A stretch of DNA of 64,000 nt from Escherichia phage ph0011, in the sequence record OP557969.1, one strand, 5' to 3'. The notes beneath the pieces were generated by a model. That model did not search any database, had not been told where the DNA came from, and saw only the letters and a list, made by a program, of their open reading frames with translations. The position numbers were made by a program, and so were the translations under genes. Below, piece after piece: positions 12,292 through 55,961 of the stretch (the stretch's first letter is position 1; the number at the start of each line of letters is the position of its first letter).

Positions 12292-12597
12292 ATGGATATA
12301 CAAACATTCAATAAACTTAAGTACTACGACAATGGTTTTACTATTATTATTAATGAACTGGATGGGATACCATATGAGTATCATAATGGTGTAATGAAAA
12401 TATTAAAAAGTATTTGTGATGATTTAAAAACTATATTTGAAAATGAATATGTTTACGACTTAGGCATAAACAATAAAAAATTATACATAAAGAAATTCAG
12501 TGGGACGCATTGTGGGCTGATGGTTAATTTGGGTTTATGTGCTGACAATAATTTTGAAGCATGTAGTTTATATCTGGATGAAATGCGAATCTCATGA
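12292..12597 (+). CDS. hypothetical small protein
   Basis: ATG immediately after upstream TAA. Confidence 0.5.
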   Translation: MDIQTFNKLKYYDNGFTIIINELDGIPYEYHNGVMKILKSICDDLKTIFENEYVYDLGINNKKLYIKKFSGTHCGLMVNLGLCADNNFEACSLYLDEMRIS

Positions 12598-12614
12598 GAC
12601 ATATCTTGAATCGG

Positions 12615-12623
12615 TGATATAAT
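12615..12623 (+). promoter_or_regulatory. extended -10 promoter element TGATATAAT
   Basis: exact 9-mer in intergenic gap upstream of 12656 gene. Confidence 0.4.
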
Positions 12624-12655
12624 TTCATTACAACACTGACAATGGAGTAGATGTT

Positions 12656-23356: not shown

Positions 23357-26029
23357 TTAAGCACTGATTGTTACAGTTGCAGTATCTTTTTTATTACCAT
23401 CCACTGTAGTCACTGTAATGATTACAGAACCTTCTTCTAGAGCAGTTACTAATCCATCATCACTAATAGATACTTTAGTAGGTTTATCTGCACTATAAGT
23501 TACTGATTTGTTAGTTGCTTTAGCTGGTAGAACTTCTGGAACTAGTTGAACTGTTTTAGTTCCTGATAGTGAAAGTTCAGTAGTTTTAGGTGTTAAACTA
23601 ACACTGGATACTGGAACTGGAATATTAACGATTACTGATGTTTGACCAGTAACATCACTACCATCAGCGGCAGTAGCGATAATATTTGCAGTACCATTAG
23701 TTAGTGCAGTTACGATACCAGTATTAGCATCTACTTTAGCAATTTCTGGAGCACTGGATGACCAAATTACATTTTTATTGGTTGCATCACTTGGGGTAAT
23801 TGCAGCAGCCATTTGTTTAGTTGCATTCAATGTAGTCAAAGTTTGATCTTTAGGAGTTACATCAATTGCAGTTACTGGCACTGGAATATTAACAGTAATA
23901 ACACCTTGACCTGTTTTACCACTTCCATCAGCAGCAGTTGCGATAATGTTTGCAGAACCGTTAGTTAACGCAGTTACAACACCAGTACTAGCATCTACTT
24001 TCGCTACAGCAGGTTTACTGGAAGACCATGTTACAGATTTATTTGTTGCGTTAGTTGGAAGAACTTCAGCAGCCATTGCTTGAGTTGCGTTAACAGCAGT
24101 CAATGTTTTAGTTGCTGGAGTAACATTAATAGATGCGACTGGAACTGGAATTGCTACAGTTACCGCACATTTTGCAGTTTTTGCTCCATCAGCAGTTGTT
24201 ACTGTGATATCAGCAGTGCCATTTGCTACAGCAGTGATTAAACCAGTTGGACTAACAGTTGCCACTCCATCAGCAGAAGTACTATAAGTTACTGCTTTGT
24301 TGGTAGCATTAGGTGGTAGTACAGTTGGTGTTAGTTGTTGAGTATCACCGACTGAAGTTAATTTAGCACTTGTTGGAGATACTGATACACTTGCAACAGG
24401 AACTGGAATGTTAACAGTTACCACGCAAACTTTAGAAAATCCACCATCAGATGTGGTTGCTGTAATATTTGCAGTACCGTTTGCAACAGCAGTGATTAAA
24501 CCAGTTGGACTTACCGTTGCGACACCCTCAGCAGAAGTAGTGTATGAAATATCTTTACGACGAGCGTTATCTGGAATAACAGATGCAGTTAGTTGTTGAG
24601 TAGCACCTACAGAAGTTAGGGTTGCTGTCAACGGAGTCATATTAATTCCAGTTACTGGGATCGTTACATCAATCACTGATTCAGCAGTTTTAGCACCATC
24701 ATCAGTGGTAACAGTAATAGTTGTAGTACCGTTATCAACCGAAGTTACTAGACCAGTATTACTAACTTTTGCTACGTCTGGATATGAAGAAACATATGAA
24801 ACTGCTTTATTGGATGCAGTTGCAGGAGCAACGGTTGTTTCTAATTGTTTAGTATCACCTAATGTTGAGAATGTATAAGTACTAGGAGTCATTGTGACAC
24901 CAGATACTGGTGTTTTCACTGTGATTGTAGTAGTGTCCGTTTTAGCACCATCTTCGGTTGTAGCTGTAATCACCACTGTGCCGTTAGCCACACCAGTTAC
25001 TAGACCAGAAGTAGGGTTAACAGTTGCTATATCAGGTGTTGCTGAAGACCACGTGACGTTTTTATTAGTTGCATCATCAGGAGATATTGTAGCAGTTAAT
25101 TGTTGAGTACTGCCAACGTTAATTGATGCAGTTTTAGGAGAAACAACAACACCACTAACTGGAGTTGTTACAGTAACAGTACATTTTGAAACAAATGAAC
25201 CATCAACTGTAGTTGCAATTACATCAGTACTGCCATCTGCAATACCAGTTACCATACCAGTTGGACTTACAGTTGCGAAGCGTGGTATACTGGATGACCA
25301 AATAACACTTTTATCACTTGCATCATCGGGTGATACGGTAGCTGTTAGTTGATGAGTTTTACCAACACCAAGAGATAGAGTTGAAGGAGAAACAACAACA
25401 CCACTAACTGGAGTTGTTACAGTAAATGCACAAACATCGGTGAAACCACCATCATGAGTAGTAACTGTTACATTTGCATTACCATTAGCACGGGCAATTG
25501 CTAAACCAGTTTGAGCATCAACTTCAACTATTGTTGGAGCAGAGGAACTATAACTTACTGTTGGATCATTTGCATAATCTGGATTAATTGTAGCTGATAG
25601 TTGTTGTGTGCTACCAACTTTAAGTGCTACTACTTTGGGTGAAATAATAACACCATTAACTGGTGTAGTATAATCACGTTTAACCACACGACCATTGTTC
25701 AATTTAATAATACGACCCATATAAAGAGTAGCATATCCCTTACTAATCCCATCATCTACATAAATCATAAATGAATTGTCTTGAACCATATTAATTGCGT
25801 CTACTGGCTTAACAGTATTTGGAATGTCGATACCACGGGTATCATACCAACACATGGAAACTTTGTAATATATATCACCATTATCATTGATGAGATCATA
25901 CACGTTACTGGAACGTTGACGGTTAATATATAAAGTTTCGGTTAATACCTTACCATCGATTTTAGCGACAGAAACTTTAATACCACCAATACCAAATGGC
26001 AATTTACCTTCACTAGATATTGCTTTCAT
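23357..26029 (-). CDS. Ig-like (Big_2-type) repeat protein, probable virion surface/decoration or adhesin protein
   Basis: 890 aa; about ten tandem ~85-aa repeats of pattern VSGVVVSP..VG.TQQLTATV.P..ATNK.V.WSS..P..A.V...GLVT..A.G...ITATT.DG; late-promoter motif upstream. Confidence 0.8.
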   Translation of the reverse strand: MKAISSEGKLPFGIGGIKVSVAKIDGKVLTETLYINRQRSSNVYDLINDNGDIYYKVSMCWYDTRGIDIPNTVKPVDAINMVQDNSFMIYVDDGISKGYATLYMGRIIKLNNGRVVKRDYTTPVNGVIISPKVVALKVGSTQQLSATINPDYANDPTVSYSSSAPTIVEVDAQTGLAIARANGNANVTVTTHDGGFTDVCAFTVTTPVSGVVVSPSTLSLGVGKTHQLTATVSPDDASDKSVIWSSSIPRFATVSPTGMVTGIADGSTDVIATTVDGSFVSKCTVTVTTPVSGVVVSPKTASINVGSTQQLTATISPDDATNKNVTWSSATPDIATVNPTSGLVTGVANGTVVITATTEDGAKTDTTTITVKTPVSGVTMTPSTYTFSTLGDTKQLETTVAPATASNKAVSYVSSYPDVAKVSNTGLVTSVDNGTTTITVTTDDGAKTAESVIDVTIPVTGINMTPLTATLTSVGATQQLTASVIPDNARRKDISYTTSAEGVATVSPTGLITAVANGTANITATTSDGGFSKVCVVTVNIPVPVASVSVSPTSAKLTSVGDTQQLTPTVLPPNATNKAVTYSTSADGVATVSPTGLITAVANGTADITVTTADGAKTAKCAVTVAIPVPVASINVTPATKTLTAVNATQAMAAEVLPTNATNKSVTWSSSKPAVAKVDASTGVVTALTNGSANIIATAADGSGKTGQGVITVNIPVPVTAIDVTPKDQTLTTLNATKQMAAAITPSDATNKNVIWSSSAPEIAKVDANTGIVTALTNGTANIIATAADGSDVTGQTSVIVNIPVPVSSVSLTPKTTELSLSGTKTVQLVPEVLPAKATNKSVTYSADKPTKVSISDDGLVTALEEGSVIITVTTVDGNKKDTATVTISA
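23560..25700 (-). repeat. tandem coding repeats (~255-bp period) within Ig-like gene, including identical 40-nt segments
   Basis: ggagaaacaacaacaccactaactggagttgttacagtaa occurs at ~25139 and ~25390. Confidence 0.6.
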
Positions 26030-38923: not shown

Positions 38924-39286
38924 ATGTCAATTCAAGGTAAACAAGTAATGTCAGGTGAGCACATCGGAACCATCATGCTGGTGGATAATGATATTGCACG
39001 TATTATTGTATCTAAAACATTTTCAGAAAATGATGAAGTACTTTTGAGTACTTTTGACGGCGAAGAACTTCGTGACGTTCAGGTTAAACATGAACCTGGT
39101 ATTGAAGGTGGTCAGCATTTGAATGTAAATGTTCTATCTAAAGAACAACTCATTGATGCACAAAATAACCCTGAAAAGTATCCACAGCTTACTATTCGTG
39201 TTAGTGGTTATGCAGTACGTTTCAATTCACTAACAAAAGAACAACAAGATGATGTAATTTCTCGTACATTCACAAAAGAACTATGA
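38924..39286 (+). CDS. autonomous glycyl-radical cofactor (GrcA/YfiD-like; T4 Y06I-like)
   Basis: [10 protein letters not shown]...[34 protein letters not shown] nearly matches the GrcA / pyruvate formate-lyase C-terminal glycyl-radical domain. Confidence 0.85.
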
Positions 39287-39612
39287 TGGATTTAAAACCA
39301 ATTGTAGTGAACAAATACAAAGAACCGTATGATGTGTACATTGGTCGTGGGTCTAAATGGGGTAACCCATTTACCCATATCAATGATAAACAGACAAAAG
39401 CCGAATTCATTGTTGCTACAAGGGAAGAATCAATTGAAAAATTCCGAGAATACATTATTGACCGTATTTCTAATGGCGAAATTAAAATTGATGATTTACT
39501 TGAATTAGCAGGTAAACGTCTTGGATGTTTCTGCAAACCAAAATCATGTCACGGCGATGTTCTTGTTGAAATAGTGAGTGCAATATTAGATGAATTACCA
39601 GACGATAATTAA
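39283..39612 (+). CDS. hypothetical protein with C-terminal [11 protein letters not shown] motif
   Basis: ORF track; Cys/His cluster. Confidence 0.5.
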
Positions 39613-50796: not shown

Positions 50797-51414
50797 ATGA
50801 ACAAATATCATGTTTACTATAAGACTAATTTATCACTACTGGAAAAATTAAACCATAAAAGTACTAAGATTAAACACTACACATTAAATGGAATTACTTT
50901 TAAGTATTTTCCACAAAAAGTTCTTACATTTATTAAGAATCCAAAATGCATAGCATGTGGTATTGAAGCAACAGAAGTACGTATTGAACGTACATTTAGT
51001 TCTGACCCAATTTTCGGTAAACCACATTTAAATCTATATGCAGTATGTGGTCTTTATGAAGTTTTAATGACAGTTGACCATAATAATCTAGCATCAAAAG
51101 GTGGTCCAGATTTAGAGTCGAACTTTAATACTATGTGCTCCAGATGCAATCAACTACGTTCAAATAAAACTGAATCAGTTGATGAGTTTCTTGTGAAAGT
51201 TAAAGGTCGTAATCTTCTACAAGAACATATGAATAATTTCTTTAATGTGCAAAATGGACAAAAGAAAAATAGTATTGATAAATCAAAACTACTAGAAGAA
51301 CGTAGATTACAACAAGAATTATGGGAAACTGATCATTTATGGCATGTTCGAGAATTTGGTCGCCATATGAAAGCGTTAAAAAAAGAACAAAAGAAATTGA
51401 ACAATCACAATTAA
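50797..51414 (+). CDS. HNH endonuclease (free-standing, possible homing endonuclease)
   Basis: TVDHNNLASKGG ... N ... CSRCNQLRSN matches HNH motif. Confidence 0.65.
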   Translation: MNKYHVYYKTNLSLLEKLNHKSTKIKHYTLNGITFKYFPQKVLTFIKNPKCIACGIEATEVRIERTFSSDPIFGKPHLNLYAVCGLYEVLMTVDHNNLASKGGPDLESNFNTMCSRCNQLRSNKTESVDEFLVKVKGRNLLQEHMNNFFNVQNGQKKNSIDKSKLLEERRLQQELWETDHLWHVREFGRHMKALKKEQKKLNNHN

Positions 51415-51825: not shown

Positions 51826-52224
51826 ATGCTTAAAGAATTAGATTTTTCAAACTTAGAAATTATCAGTGCTGTTAAAAACATCTCCGACATGGGAGATGAG
51901 AAATCAGTGCTTGTTACTATTACTTTTGTAAAAGAAGAAGATAGTTATAGTCATTTGACTGGTATTGAAGAACTAATTCATAAAACCAATCTTGAAAATA
52001 ATGGTAAACTCATCAAACTTCAGGCATCCTATATCCAAAAAACATCAAATTTTATAGACATAAATAATATAGTCAAGGTGGTATATAATCATCCTGACCA
52101 CAAATATAGGAATACATCAAGAAATGAAAATATTGCGAAAGATACTAACATCATAGAAGATGTTGACTTTATCAATACTATTTTTGATCGTTGCTCTATT
52201 GATTTGAAAAAAGTATACATGTAA
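51826..52224 (+). CDS. hypothetical protein
   Basis: ORF track. Confidence 0.5.
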   Translation: MLKELDFSNLEIISAVKNISDMGDEKSVLVTITFVKEEDSYSHLTGIEELIHKTNLENNGKLIKLQASYIQKTSNFIDINNIVKVVYNHPDHKYRNTSRNENIAKDTNIIEDVDFINTIFDRCSIDLKKVYM

Positions 52225-52244
52225 TGGGACAATAATTGAACCTG

Positions 52245-52253
52245 TGATATAAT
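52245..52253 (+). promoter_or_regulatory. extended -10 promoter element TGATATAAT
   Basis: exact 9-mer at the start of the non-coding island. Confidence 0.45.
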
Positions 52254-52546
52254 GTATATTGTAAAATGACAACGGACATTGTAAAAAATGGACACTGAAA
52301 ACCTAATTCACTTGAAAATGTAAAGGATAGATGAGCTTTACCGTTGTAGCGAACAGCAGAAGAAACCCGTTAGAGTACTGGCATTCAAACAAACACGATG
52401 TAAGACCACGAATCACGGCGACACGGCTGTATAAAGAACTCCGATAAGCATACAGAGAGTTCCTAGATAGATGTATAAGGTTCGCACCTTACCAGATTTG
52501 CTAAGGGAGTTTAAGAATGGCGAACGCAATTTTTACAAGAAAGTTG

Positions 52547-52563
52547 CGTCCAAAATTTGAGAA
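52547..52563 (+). repeat. 17-nt direct repeat copy 1 (cgtccaaaatttgagaa)
   Basis: identical to 52700-52716; extended repeat agaaag..cgtccaaaatttgagaa. Confidence 0.6.
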
Positions 52564-52699
52564 CAAGTACTACTTTGATCGAATAGAGTTAGTACTGAGT
52601 GCTGTTGATGAAAAGACCAGCGACCGTTGCATATGACTGCGATAGAGAGAAACCGAGCAACCCGCTTTCGCTCTCTAAATCTTTGGTACGAGAAAGATC

Positions 52700-52716
52700 C
52701 GTCCAAAATTTGAGAA
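52700..52716 (+). repeat. 17-nt direct repeat copy 2 (cgtccaaaatttgagaa)
   Basis: identical to 52547-52563. Confidence 0.6.
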
Positions 52717-52754
52717 ATTCGCAATTCGATAATATCCGATGCCATCAGCGTCAA

Positions 52755-52780
52755 GAAGAGACTTAATTGTCTCTTTTTTA
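52755..52780 (+). terminator. rho-independent terminator
   Basis: stem gagac/gtctc (loop ttaatt) followed by TTTTTT. Confidence 0.6.
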
Positions 52781-52784
52781 TTAC

Positions 52785-52809
52785 TTTCATTCCCCTGTGG
52801 GGGATGAAA
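52785..52809 (+). other. 11-bp-stem hairpin
   Basis: tttcattcccc tgt ggggatgaaa; no T-tract. Confidence 0.5.
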
Positions 52810-52873
52810 TAGTCCTCAACAAATCCCGTCAAGTTATTAAAATACATTATCATTATTCAGAAGTAACAAGTTT

Positions 52874-52919
52874 ACGAAGTAAACGAAGTGACTTCTTGGG
52901 TTGCGAGAGAACGAAGTGA
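52874..52919 (+). promoter_or_regulatory. three direct repeats of ACGAAGT(A/G)A upstream of 52920 gene
   Basis: copies at 52874, 52883 and 52911; third copy sits where an SD would be. Confidence 0.35.
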
Positions 52920-53348
52920 ATGAGTAACACAACGAAAATATATAATAAATCTGAATTAACACAATTGTTATTCAAAGAATATTTTGAGTTTCAGATAAAA
53001 GACGAACATCAATTACCACAACAATACTTGAAAAGAATTAAAGATACGTCAGTAATTACTAAAGAAACTAATTTTTATAATAGTATTTTGGATTTCGTTA
53101 AATCAGTTCATACGACAAGACCTATTGTAGTTTTGTTTTTTGATAAATCTATCCCTTTAGTAGTTCCCGAAAATGTATTTTTTATCTCAGAAACTGATTT
53201 AAATAACCAAAGTACTATAAGTAGATTAAGAAATTGCTTACTTGTAGTATGTGATTCTTATTTGTATAATAACAGAATACTATGGGATAGAAGCAAACGC
53301 AATGCAATTTCGGAAATGAACCCTGAACTTACATTTATTATTAACTAA
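52920..53348 (+). CDS. hypothetical protein
   Basis: ORF track; no canonical SD. Confidence 0.5.
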   Translation: MSNTTKIYNKSELTQLLFKEYFEFQIKDEHQLPQQYLKRIKDTSVITKETNFYNSILDFVKSVHTTRPIVVLFFDKSIPLVVPENVFFISETDLNNQSTISRLRNCLLVVCDSYLYNNRILWDRSKRNAISEMNPELTFIIN

Positions 53349-55481: not shown

Positions 55482-55961
55482 ATGTATAACCTTACAATTA
55501 TCCGCGAACCAAATGAATATGATGGTGATACGACATATGGTGAAGTTTTGGTATTTCAAAGTGCTGAACAAAGTGAAATTGAACGTGAATTAAAAGATTA
55601 TTTACGTGAACATTTATATCTATACCGTACTGATGCAAATTGTCATTATGGTGATATAATGTTTATTGTAACACACAATGGTGTAGTAATTGAATATGTG
55701 AATATGACAAATGCTATGGATTTTCTTAATTACACTGATACTTCTACACCATTGGATAATTATTTCAGTACTGTTTTTGATGAATTACGTAAGAACGTTT
55801 CTAGAAATGATAGATTCTGCACTAATGTTGGATTATTAGAATCAAATACAAGAAAGAATCTTTCTAAAAAGTATGATGAAGAACGTAAGAAAAATTTGGA
55901 AATTAAACATTTGCATGAGTTAATGAAGAAATATCCCAACGAGGTCAAATATGGCTCTTAG
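55482..55961 (+). CDS. hypothetical protein
   Basis: ORF track. Confidence 0.5.
   Translation: MYNLTIIREPNEYDGDTTYGEVLVFQSAEQSEIERELKDYLREHLYLYRTDANCHYGDIMFIVTHNGVVIEYVNMTNAMDFLNYTDTSTPLDNYFSTVFDELRKNVSRNDRFCTNVGLLESNTRKNLSKKYDEERKKNLEIKHLHELMKKYPNEVKYGS

Follow-up and report, generated by a model that had tools for sequence, protein, structure and literature searches.

A family of large structured RNAs shared by RaK2-like jumbo phages and integrative islands, with a possible role in replication

To our knowledge, large and intricately folded RNAs are rare in bacteria and phages, and nearly every class of them is a ribozyme, an RNP core or, in the latest case, an RNA-only nanocage. GOLLD and ROOL are large non-coding RNAs borne by phages (roughly 500-800 nt), with multi-helix folds defined by covariation, pseudoknots or kissing loops, and a variable periphery around a conserved core; an interaction of ROOL that had been read from covariation as tertiary turned out to be quaternary (bioRxiv 10.1101/2024.12.08.627333). 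Likewise, the loop-loop complementarity of the pRNA of phage phi29, a phage-encoded structured RNA expressed from an early promoter, was read as a pseudoknot and is in fact intermolecular.

Other non-coding transcripts act at origins of replication. The ColE1 RNA II is a folded pre-primer of ~550 nt whose fold and G-run are both needed to form a persistent hybrid and decide whether it forms, while oriF and oriG of phage T4 are origins made of a promoter plus an unwinding element. T4 initiates at several origins, and a plasmid that carries one of them is both replicated and packaged when T4 infects the cell. Finally, ncRNA001-004 of the Pseudomonas jumbo phage PA5oct were defined by RNA-seq, the ncRNAs of this phage representing 2-5% of phage reads and two of its ORF-free regions being highly transcribed throughout infection (PMC7318152).

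Here we analysed a 64,000-nt stretch of DNA, hereafter the window, from Escherichia phage ph0011 (OP557969.1), a jumbo phage that resembles Asteriusvirus and has ~95% identity to PBECO4/121Q. The RNA module that it carries shares with GOLLD and ROOL the size, phage-borne and non-coding nature, type of fold and variable periphery around a conserved core. It differs from them by the lack of sequence or model similarity, by the absence of association with tRNA genes (no such linkage among 17 related loci), by its occurrence as three to five diverged, evenly spaced and co-oriented paralogues per genome, by the invariant hairpin, the box and the second small hairpin unit that always accompany it, and by its carriers, which are Enterobacterales jumbo myoviruses. 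The phi29 pRNA is smaller (~120-174 nt), single-copy and has its own Rfam family, which does not match the module; in addition, the pseudoknots of the module give no ordered hetero-ring and we found no link to packaging. With ColE1 and T4 the module has in common a strong promoter, here a predicted one, for a non-coding transcript of a non-coding locus. T4 uses several origins, the phages that carry the module have a T4-type replisome, and an element with such an origin is able to hitch-hike on infection. However, its fold is much more elaborate, a terminator lies 5' of the G-run in most copies, no homology is to be expected and an origin role is one that we infer. [quoted passage not shown]

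Transcription unit and fold of the RNA module

The module lies in a stretch (52225-52919) without any + strand ORF of at least 60 aa, as the sequence-only reading of the window had pointed out. It is flanked by ORFs 51826-52224 and 52920-53348, which are complete, independent and separately annotated genes, and an HNH endonuclease ORF is found two genes upstream. The GC content is indeed raised (0.399 for the RNA body at 52260-52785 and 0.416 at 52300-52760, for a window mean of 0.335 with an sd of 0.033), the body ranking in the top 3.3% among 526-nt windows without being the maximum of the window. This is a modest elevation, and the ~49% first proposed does not hold beyond a very local scope.

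Transcription on the + strand is predicted to start from promoter P1 (52226..52253), in which a -35-like GGGACA (52226-31) is combined with the extended -10 motif TGATATAAT (52245-53) already noticed in the earlier reading, with 10/12 matches and the TG in a consensus scan. Of the 53 full copies, 50 have TGnTAnAAT at the equivalent place and all have a -10-like hexamer. P1 can be considered a conserved sigma-70 extended -10 promoter, from which transcription would start at about 52259-52261. The structured RNA body (52260..52782, + strand) covers ~525 nt from this inferred start to the U-tract of the intrinsic terminator T1, as supported by alignments A1 and A3, RNAalifold and our own model. 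T1 (52753..52782, +) has a stem at 52757-62/52769-74 and a U6 at 52774-79; the terminator scan places it, as expected from the earlier reading, at 52753-52778 plus a T-run, and the stem covaries at 4/6 pairs (helix 16 of the model). Since T1 is present in only 37/53 copies, read-through forms are likely. Further 3', a possible second promoter (P2) is predicted from a -10 TAAAAT (52838..52843, +; 9/12 matches in the consensus scan), which reads TATAAT or TATAAA in other copies and keeps its position at a fixed distance 3' of the box described below. The order of the module is therefore extended -10 promoter, ~525-nt RNA, terminator, hairpin and box, and second hairpin unit.

With a model of 17 helices and a pseudoknot, we observed that 92.1% of the cells were paired across 32 sequences, compared to 78.0% in shuffles (0/500 reaching 92.1%) and 39-45% in slid controls. 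First, compensatory double changes were found in 55 of the 90 pairs of this model, and RNAalifold gave compensatory changes in 39/62 pairs. Second, the MFE of the RNA body had a z of -3.1. Third, G.U amounted to 8.4% versus 2.0% for A.C, and this ratio of ~4:1 indicates an RNA of the + strand. Each paralogue retains 80-97% of the pairs, with 10 to 28 double changes relative to the window copy. The comparative alignment with related phages, which had been suggested as a check, thus supports a covarying fold across 32 sequences, with no fewer than 14 helices in the RNA and, in addition, a pseudoknot or kissing helix of 7 bp.

The 5' part of the body, like all elements below on the + strand, begins with hairpin P1 (52277..52290; CAUU 52277-80/AAUG 52287-90, covariation seen by eye in A3) and the irregular hairpin P2 (52303..52330; helix 1), which has a conserved GAAAAYGUA loop and double changes in 6/8 pairs. 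The 5' domain (52335..52462; helices 2-6, 91-100% paired) is made of helices P3 (52335-37/52348-50), P4 (ACAGC 52353-57/GCUGU 52426-30; 4/5 pairs covary), P5 (CCGU 52367-70/ACGG 52415-18), which encloses a variable insert, and P6 (GAACUC 52436-41/GAGUUC 52457-62; 5/5 pairs covary). A long-range invariant helix CCCGUUAG/CUAAGGG was rejected because minimal variants (sequences L032/L039/L046) have no UUAG, and a UUCG tetraloop caps their P5 instead. Hairpin P7 (AAGGU 52477-81/ACCUU 52486-90; helix 7), for which the columns of the MAFFT alignment are ragged, covaries as AAGG/CCUU, GAG/CUC and UGAG/CUCA. It is followed by the invariant and apparently unpaired GCUAAGGGAG (52500-52509), AAGGGA being invariant in 32/32 sequences and retained in the distant clade. 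Unpaired invariant segments of the fold are AAGGGAG, AGAAGAAAC and GACCGUUGCA...GCAACCCGC.

The identical 17-mers reported earlier turned out to be the core of a 30-nt repeat whose two copies (52534-63 and 52687-716) are 90% identical and spaced by 153 nt. Copy 1 (UACAAGAAAGUUGCGUCCAAAAUUUGAGAA, 52534..52563) forms the tip of the variable hairpin P8, and copy 2 (UACGAGAAAGAUCCGUCCAAAAUUUGAGAA, 52687..52716) the tip of P13. The repeat occupies the first position only in BF_A and Munch-type copies, being absent there in GAP32/CBB-type copies, and the second position only in GAP32/CBB/Yen-type copies, being absent there in Munch/BF_A-type copies. Between them, hairpin P9 (52567..52595) exposes a 7-nt loop, AUCGAAU (52578-84), that pairs with AUUCGAU (52724-30) as a pseudoknot or kissing helix (helix 9); all 7 pairs covary, 100% of the cells are paired, and the sequence is self-complementary in nearly every paralogue checked, except the unaligned group-2 copies.

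The 3' core (52601..52723; helices 10-14, 94-100% paired, with most pairs covarying) contains P10 (52601-04/52618-21), P11 (UGCGA 52638-42/UCGCA 52719-23), P12 (GAGAG 52645-49/CUUUC 52665-69, 100% paired) and P13 (UCUC 52672-75/GAGA 52712-15, 97.6% paired), together with GACCGUUGCA...GCAACCCGC (52622-52665), the most conserved sequence within the RNA body. The agagag..ctctct hairpin of the earlier reading can be drawn here, but with 78.6% of the cells paired as AGAGAG/CUCUCU it is weaker than the P12 and P13 partners of the same strands. The last hairpin before T1 is P14 (52738..52755; GAUGC 52738-42/GCGUC 52748-52, tail AAG; helix 15), whose 3' strand and tail GCGUCAAG are found again further 3', as CCGUCAAG, within the box. 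The pentamer of the P14 3' strand is the same as that of the box in 39/52 copies, and both change jointly in RaK2 and in the distant clade.

Comparison with known RNAs and coding readings

We scanned the window with Rfam 15, which takes in GOLLD, ROOL, OLE, raiA, HEARO, RNase P, group I/II introns, tmRNA, 6S and pRNA, and found no match at the gathering score in the 64 kb. At E values up to 10, the module region gave only five chance-level matches (11-18 bits, versus gathering scores of 37-45), and 17 paralogue loci (141 kb) gave, at the gathering score, one tRNA elsewhere and nothing more. ARAGORN found no tRNA or tmRNA in the window, and none overlapping the module in the 17 related loci. 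The covariance-model scan planned in the sequence-only reading thus matched no known family, and the literature that we searched gave no description of this RNA element. With a covarying fold above controls, a G.U asymmetry, a conserved promoter and terminator bounding a predicted transcript, and no conserved ORF, the structured ncRNA that was one of the first candidates is strongly supported. The module is almost certainly a genuine new structured-RNA gene family, found neither in Rfam nor in the literature searched, and comparison of its copies points to strong purifying selection.

The same data bear on whether the locus is a decayed gene or a mobile-element remnant, as was also considered at first, or a diverged known RNA (RNase P, group I/II intron, tmRNA, 6S, CRISPR/ToxI-like array). 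The distinct composition of the region, the upstream HNH endonuclease ORF and the presence of the module in mobile islands would be in line with this. So would short stretches that recall what we take to be conserved regions of M1 RNA (RNase P), a lead only, which we dropped: the resemblance has no model support and the order of the elements differs. Besides the Rfam 15 and ARAGORN results, the unit is intact, its fold is under purifying selection and its positions are syntenic across several genera. A group I/II intron was rejected, the flanking ORFs being complete genes rather than split exons, the module having its own promoter and terminator and no intron model matching. A CRISPR array or ToxI-type repeat RNA was rejected as well, there being only two 30-nt repeats, 153 nt apart, non-tandem and placed on hairpin tips, either of which is dispensable in other phages. 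We consider all these origins highly improbable.

That the locus encodes small proteins, be it the 38-aa and 39-aa ORFs (52331-52447 and 52517-52636) or a minus-strand 106-aa ORF, is barely credible: these short ORFs exist as the sequence-only reading described them, with AAGGGAG seven nt upstream of the second, and small hypothetical proteins are annotated here in some GenBank records, but nothing is annotated in most, homologues either lack the two ORFs or have them with a broken frame, the longest ORFs of 32 homologues vary in strand, position and length (28 to 86 aa), indels are not multiples of three, substitutions keep base pairs and not codons, and the ATG of the second ORF lies in a covarying hairpin in other phages; in GAP32-type copies, it is inside a CCA-GAAA-UGG hairpin with a stop after 4 codons.

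The conserved 3' region and the distribution of the module

Beyond what the sequence-only reading had noticed, the module continues past T1 through a hairpin, a box and the ACGAAGT unit, belongs to a paralogous family of three to five copies and is carried by bacterial islands. Hairpin H (52786-52808, +; UUCAUUCCCC-UGU-GGGGGAUGAA), the hairpin already seen after the terminator, is real, and can be described as an invariant C4/G5-6 hairpin with a G-run. It is followed by a box of ~35 nt that ends in ...AUAGUCCUCAACAAAUCCCGUCAAG at 52833 (+). Together, H and the box (52786..52833) are the most conserved part of the module, near-invariant in ~60 copies from five paralogue groups, and unique within the window; a pattern made from them was used to locate every copy. 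A mini-ORF starting from GGGGGGAUG in the box was rejected: indels of 1 to 4 nt between copies shift the frame, so that nucleotides and not codons are conserved.

Unit 2, which is truncated in the window copy (52858..52919, +) and adjoins ORF 52920-53348, contains hairpin A (CAGAAGU 52858-64/ACUUCUUG 52891-98, +), with an inner mini-hairpin (GUUUAC-GAA-GUAAAC, 52870-84, +). Another hairpin, B, is conserved in other copies and missing in the window copy; the stems of A and B covary between paralogues. Unit 2 displays the ACGAAGTGA motifs. The three ACGAAGTRA repeats of the earlier reading (52874, 52883 and 52911) are the only ones in the 64 kb, for a chance expectation of 0.81 and with three reached in 5 of 100 shuffles, and the motif occurs at the matching place in other genera. 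An unrestricted RNA-RNA duplex search of the body against the box or unit 2 was uninformative.

Homologues were present in every RaK2-like jumbo phage that we searched (71 GenBank records, at least four genera), including 35/35 Asteriusvirus-like records among the matches listed (at least 80% query coverage), which carry the window copy. The module was seen in phages of E. coli, Klebsiella, Salmonella, Cronobacter, Serratia, Yersinia and Erwinia, and the region is unannotated in most records. A pattern from the 3' core also retrieved family members from IMG/VR, GTDB genomes and metagenomes, many GC-rich chance matches among the genomes and metagenomes being removed with the family profile; across the family, the RNA measures about 450-590 nt.

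Mimas- and Eneladusvirus-type genomes contain five ancient paralogues, co-oriented, roughly evenly spaced and at syntenic positions. Those of BF lie at ~30, 93, 175, 259 and 335 kb of ~357 kb, a layout common to GAP32, CBB, Yen9-04 and three metagenomic genomes; if five points fell at random on a circle, the calculated chance of having no gap below 52 of 357 kb would be about 0.005. Copy 3 has the common orientation in spite of two adjacent genes that both run on the opposite strand, and a strong bidirectional terminator closes it. The paralogues are diverged (55-75% identity). We counted at least three copies in 121Q, at least two in RaK2 and one in the window, where neither BLAST nor the nhmmer family profile found any other. 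In the window's own genus, only three copies were found, unevenly spaced around the whole genome. The synteny comparison proposed at first therefore places the module at syntenic positions in several genera.

The module also belongs to the core of a family of ~10-kb integrative, satellite-like islands of Enterobacteriaceae, in which it lies between the integrase and a CI-like repressor. Pfam, NCBIfam and PHROGs recognised no replication or structural genes in these islands, and their proteins, sought as RNA partners common to the phages, have neither phage homologues nor informative family matches. The RNA module is the sole element that we found in common between islands and phages. The copy of an E. 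coli island is 85% identical to Eneladusvirus copy 3, and from such likeness the module appears to have been transferred between phages and integrative islands. The islands also bear defence cargo.

Possible functions of the module

We favour, with a probability of roughly 0.4, an RNA-dependent replication origin acting in cis over a trans-acting ornate RNA or RNP. Host RNA polymerase would fire P1 early in infection, and the folded transcript, or its read-through into the C4/G5-6 hairpin and box, would let the T4-like replisome start DNA synthesis, either through a persistent RNA-DNA hybrid or through a phage factor recruited to the box, for which the ColE1 RNA II and the T4 oriF and oriG would be precedents. 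The ~350-kb genome would in this way be served by five spaced origins, and islands bearing the module would be amplified on infection by such a phage, then packaged by headful. First, the five copies of Mimas- and Eneladusvirus-type genomes are co-oriented and evenly spaced, and the orientation of copy 3 is independent of its neighbouring genes. Second, the best-conserved piece is the G-run hairpin with the box downstream, and not the RNA body. Third, the islands retain the module though no replication gene is recognised in them. A T4-type replisome is present in these phages (PMC5259590).

Other data argue against an origin. The terminator standing between the RNA body and the G-run in 37/53 copies, window copy included, argues for a released, discrete RNA. 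The pseudoknot and the many invariant unpaired nucleotides make a fold that seems far more elaborate than priming needs, and that has the look of an RNA from an RNP or a ribozyme. Being inherited by synteny, the even spacing amounts to one observation, and the three copies found in the window's own genus are uneven. Unit 2, 3' of the box, covaries as RNA too, which the origin model leaves unexplained, and several island proteins without assigned role could be replication proteins.

It is conceivable, and we keep it as a serious possibility, that the ~525-nt transcript is instead released at T1, accumulates early and acts in trans, as an RNA-only assembly or as an RNP or ribozyme core like GOLLD, ROOL, OLE or the phi29 pRNA. 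The copies would then raise dosage or supply non-identical subunits, and the 7-nt loop-strand helix could be intermolecular. The elaborate covarying fold with its pseudoknot and invariant unpaired segments agrees with this, as do the predicted discrete transcription unit with strong promoter and canonical terminator, and the peripheral 30-nt repeat carried on either of two hairpins in the manner of tertiary-contact modules in large RNAs. GOLLD and ROOL are themselves phage-borne, ROOL offers the precedent of a quaternary contact (bioRxiv 10.1101/2024.12.08.627333), and the related jumbo phage PA5oct has abundant ncRNAs (PMC7318152). However, the paralogues are old, diverged and not homogenised, which dosage alone does not predict, and a trans-acting RNA leaves unexplained the even spacing and co-orientation regardless of local genes, the extreme conservation of a box outside the terminated RNA and the need of the islands for their own copy. 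Moreover, several paralogues of one genome have the same pseudoknot sequence, which is self-complementary, and we therefore rejected a hetero-pentameric ring of five paralogues joined hand in hand.

We find it unlikely that the module is a cis-regulatory leader, or a processive-antitermination or expression cassette, controlling downstream genes as the HK022 put RNA or a long structured 5' leader does, in which case the next gene would have unit 2, with its ACGAAGTGA loops, as its 5' UTR. ORF 52920 adjoins the third ACGAAGTGA in the window, the 16/53 copies without T1 suggest that transcription runs on, and a group-specific conserved sequence, apparently a gene start, comes right after unit 2 in each of paralogue groups 1, 2 and 5. 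Yet copy 3, between opposite-strand genes and closed by a bidirectional terminator, has nothing downstream to regulate, the downstream genes differ among paralogue groups and in the islands, and about 500 nt is far larger than known antitermination RNAs.

Whatever its function, the family is unusually tractable, as it resides in cultured phages of which several are phage-therapy candidates, and annotation can be corrected: the hypothetical proteins called across the locus in many GenBank records are spurious. Five ancient paralogues at regular intervals and in fixed orientation tie a signal at the RNA level to a pattern at the genome level, and the sharing of the module with small integrative islands points to an unrecognised interaction between jumbo phages and islands, piracy or decoy. 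We tentatively propose that RaK2-like jumbo phages may replicate from five evenly spaced origins, each with its own ornate RNA of ~0.5 kb, where the folded RNA with the invariant G-run and box would recruit or prime the T4-like replisome, and that ~10-kb integrative satellites may have captured this RNA origin for their amplification and packaging. Alternatively, and no less novel, the RNA may be a new ribozyme or form an RNA-only quaternary assembly. If the five-origin proposal is true, it would reveal a new kind of RNA-dependent origin together with the first satellites described for jumbo phages.

A promoter, a folded RNA and a terminator form one conserved gene

Between 52225 and 52919 there is no + strand ORF of 60 aa or more, and the GC content of the region is raised (0.40-0.42 vs 0.335 for the window), as the sequence-only reading had noted. 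The 526-nt windows of highest GC in the 64 kb lie at about 23900-24650 and 62550-63100 (0.41-0.42), slightly above the RNA gene. We also recovered the proposed promoter, an extended -10 (TGATATAAT, 52245), the hairpin and T-run of the terminator T1 (52753-52780) and the additional hairpin behind it (hairpin H, 52786-52808). By aligning 32 non-identical homologues (alignment A3), we found that the promoter is conserved and that the RNA body (52260-52782) consists of invariant blocks between helices whose strands change together, in agreement with the suggested structured non-coding RNA.

RNAalifold predicted 62 pairs, with compensatory changes in 39 of them. A fuller model, drawn from a scan for column-pair covariation, folds of sub-alignments and inspection, comprises 16 nested helices and a pseudoknot. 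First, standard pairs fill 92.1% of its 2765 cells, compared to 78.0% in column shuffles (0/500 reached 92.1%) and to 39-45% when partners were slid by 1-3 columns, the latter contrast being somewhat flattering because the model was derived from the same sequences. Second, both sides change in 55 of the 90 pairs, and these double changes are too numerous to be dismissed even though model and test share their sequences. Third, all 7 nt of the P9 hairpin loop (52578-84) join 52724-30 in the pseudoknot, of which 100% of the cells are paired and 7/7 pairs covary. The + strand folds better than its shuffles (z = -3.1) and, since G.U combinations (8.4%) exceed A.C (2.0%), it is the selected strand. 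Adding 53 further copies left 80-97% of the pairs intact in each paralogue, and each differed from the window by 10-28 double changes. The fold is under strong selection.

The AGAGAG/CUCUCU hairpin picked out by eye did not survive the alignment: evolution preserves other partners, GAGAG with CUUUC and UCUC with GAGA, and the GAGAG/CUUUC pairing encloses a highly conserved 15-nt loop. GCUAAGGGAG, apparently unpaired, does not vary, and the insert of helix P5 exists in three versions shuffled among paralogues: long, short and minimal, the last a UUCG tetraloop. The two identical 17-mers described as direct repeats can be extended to 30 nt, and form the core of a hairpin-tip module carried on both P8 (52534-52563) and P13 (52687-52716) in the window, on P13 only in the GAP32, CBB and Yen copies and on P8 only in Munch- and BF_A-type copies. 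At least one such module is present in many, not all, of the copies inspected (121Q copy 2 and EJP2_A show no clear one in A3). By analogy, it seems to behave like the interchangeable peripheral contact or binding modules of large RNAs.

The 751 nt around the locus share 93-95% identity with Asteriusvirus Escherichia jumbo phages (e.g. PBECO4, 121Q, phAPEC6) and 79-85% with more distant members. About 480 nt are found at 65-71% identity in jumbo phages of Cronobacter (GAP32), Pectobacterium (CBB), Xanthomonas (XbC2), Yersinia (fHe-Yen9-03/04), Serratia (BF), Erwinia and Salmonella (Munch, 7t3), and the match is confined to the core in the Klebsiella phages RaK2 and K64-1. A total of 71 GenBank phage records match, the majority without annotation at the site and some with small hypothetical proteins on either strand. 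In PBECO4-like records (e.g. SHEFM2K, SD-2_S15, JP4, WPEC3), automatic annotation covers the RNA gene with up to six overlapping "hypothetical proteins", very likely spuriously. The neighbouring genes encode a structural and a Dps-like protein in the window, EndoVII and a baseplate hub in BF and Munch, and a sigma factor in RaK2; as they differ between phage groups, the conserved unit is autonomous. A 205-aa ORF two genes upstream (50797-51414), annotated as HNH endonuclease in 121Q and A4, is found at the RNA locus in the Asteriusvirus copy only and is therefore probably an unrelated free-standing homing endonuclease. Two sites of the window, 12589-12646 (71%) and 55651-55681 (84%), weakly resemble the promoter-proximal 52219-52276; both are probably further early promoters whose initially transcribed sequence is similar.

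The two short ORFs noticed at first exist but are not conserved: the longest ORFs of the 32 homologues (28 to 86 aa) differ in strand and position, and in GAP32-type copies the AUG of the second one lies in a CCA-GAAA-UGG hairpin, with a stop after four codons. Rfam 15 returned zero matches on the window at gathering score, chance-level matches only on the region with E up to 10, and nothing relevant on seventeen paralogue loci; ARAGORN found no tRNA or tmRNA. Short stretches of the RNA resemble conserved regions of RNase P, but no model supports this and we discarded it. We consider the coding, gene-remnant and known-family readings essentially excluded.

Hairpin H, the box and a second hairpin unit

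In every copy, hairpin H (C4-loop-G5/6-AUGAA) and the box, a conserved stretch ...UCAACAAAYCYCGUCA(A)G that ends at 52833 in the window, stand 3' of T1. Over about 60 copies they are the conservation maximum of the whole module (promoter, RNA body, T1, hairpin H with box, and unit 2), even with RNA bodies at 55-60% identity. Only 37 of 53 copies have T1; in the others, helix P14 directly abuts hairpin H, so that read-through or longer forms are likely.

The box is followed by a -10-like TATAAT/TATAAA, an AU-rich stretch, GAAUUGAG and hairpin A, which displays AACGAAGUGA; then come AAAAUUCUUUGA, hairpin B and GGCAAAU. As both hairpins have covarying stems (e.g. CAUUC/GAAUG, CUAAC/GUUAG, CUUGC/GCAAG, CAAUC/GAUUG), unit 2 (52858-52919) is also read as RNA. 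The window copy retains hairpin A and the three ACGAAGTRA motifs already seen there, which are the only ones in the 64 kb; the start of the ORF at 52920 takes the place of hairpin B.

Moreover, the 3' strand of P14 with its tail (NCGUCA(A)G; GCGUCAAG at 52748-52755) recurs at the end of the box (CCGUCAAG at 52826-52833), at the same positions in all copies, and the two sites co-evolve across the family. In 39 of 52 copies both sites have the same pentamer; RaK2 has GCUUCAAG and CCUUCAAG (both sites ..CUUCAAG). A distant, GC-richer metagenomic clade (L217, L220, L248, L230, L268), which retains the promoter, AAGGGAG, the core/3' domain, hairpin H and a variant box GGGGGATGGAAATATCTCTGTCAAACCACGAAGA and differs in the 5' domain, has CAACGAAG and CCACGAAG (both sites ..ACGAAG). 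Either the same partner would be bound at both sites, or the two would alternate in pairing with the P14 5' strand.

Spaced paralogues in phages and copies in bacterial islands

We scanned IMG/VR with a core pattern and then a junction pattern, and screened the matches with an nhmmer profile from A3. In jumbo-phage genomes, a full RNA copy precedes every junction. BF carries five copies, at 30.5, 93.0, 174.5, 258.8 and 335.3 kb of 357 kb, and the same five positions are occupied in GAP32, CBB, fHe-Yen9-04 and three metagenomic genomes (~355-371 kb). There are at least three copies in 121Q (192.8 kb, 247.5 kb, which corresponds to the window copy, and 326.6 kb) and at least two in RaK2; the window holds none besides that at 52245-52919. 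All copies of one genome share one strand, copy 3 included, although both of its flanking genes lie on the other. If five points are placed at random on a circle of 357 kb, the probability that all gaps reach at least 52 kb is, by our calculation, (1 - 5 x 0.147)^4, about 0.005, the even spacing counting effectively as one observation because of synteny. The paralogues are old. Those within one genome are 55-75% identical, and a copy is often more similar to its positional orthologues in other genera. They also exchange peripheral pieces.

The full module was found in two of 5426 complete E. coli genomes (76% identity to the window, 85% to Eneladusvirus copy 3), in a ~10-kb island adjoining ffs (LR-29-1 chromosome, L053:7900-18300) with an IS3-interrupted integrase and a DuOB-DUF488-SLOG/DUF4326 gene set. 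Three more copies came from GTDB genomes: Silvania hatchlandensis (L073), an Enterobacteriaceae isolate and a 2.8-kb contig. The latter (L090, DPOH01000171.1), binned as Clostridium sp. UBA10317, carries an island-type RNA copy and is probably a misbinned enterobacterial or mobile-element contig. The Silvania element encodes a large serine recombinase, a CI-like S24 repressor and DarT with an ADP-ribosylglycohydrolase. Two of its proteins, a resolvase (73% identity) and a hypothetical protein, have counterparts in the E. coli island.

Of 120 pattern matches in the metagenomes, 35 belong to the family, and seven of these have the same island core. This core starts with a tyrosine- or large-serine-type integrase and 0-3 unknown ORFs; the RNA module is followed by the CI-like S24 repressor on the opposite strand, a Ner/SfsB-like wHTH protein, an uncharacterised 286-aa protein, LprI and the resolvase. 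The islands, with L241, L203, L212, L261, L254 and L234 from metagenomes, are a family of ~10-kb integrative, satellite-like elements with a conserved core and variable, defence-like cargo (the DuOB-DUF488-SLOG/DUF4326 set, or DarT with ADP-ribosylglycohydrolase). We recognised no structural or replication genes in them, and found no jumbo-phage homologues of the island proteins tested. At 39277-39591 the window encodes a phage homologue of the DUF4326 domain of the island SLOG-DUF4326 protein (tBLASTn, 41% over 108 aa).

Candidate functions of the module

We tentatively propose, with a probability of roughly 0.4, that the module is a cis-acting, RNA-dependent replication origin. Its RNA would act in cis for the start of DNA replication, and an island carrying it would be amplified and packaged, as an origin carrier, by a T4-like headful helper. 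This would cover the spaced, co-oriented copies, the conservation maximum at the G-run and box instead of the RNA body, the early host-type promoter, and the retention of the module by islands without a recognised replication gene. The island argument builds on established background: an origin is the sole cis element that a T4-like, headful-packaging helper requires for amplification and packaging. Precedents are T4 origin plasmids, several T4 origins (oriF and oriG, each combining a promoter with an unwinding element) and the folded, ~550-nt RNA II of ColE1. A T4-type replisome is documented in RaK2-like jumbo phages (PMC5259590). However, three features argue against an origin: the terminator precedes the G-run in most copies, the fold is very elaborate, and unit 2 covaries at the RNA level.

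A second model, in our view only slightly less probable than an origin, is an ornate RNA or RNP acting in trans, or an RNA-only assembly of the GOLLD/ROOL kind. It best accounts for the invariant loops, the interchangeable module and the fold itself, and the loop that is paired over its full length may well form an intermolecular contact, as in ROOL and phi29 pRNA. The spacing, the box and the islands are then left without account. A cis-regulatory leader or antitermination role is improbable, since nothing lies downstream of copy 3 for it to regulate.

The nearest known kinds are the large ornate phage RNAs (GOLLD, ROOL) and RNA-primed origins, and none of the tests run placed the module in either. 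That phages of this type produce non-coding RNA in abundance is shown by the ncRNAs which RNA-seq defined in the related phage PA5oct (PMC7318152); these have no detectable homology to the module RNA. Since it belongs to none of these families and no description of it was found in the literature searched, we rate the element a new family of large structured phage RNA, one with unusual properties at the genome level and a genuine prospect of representing a new mechanism.
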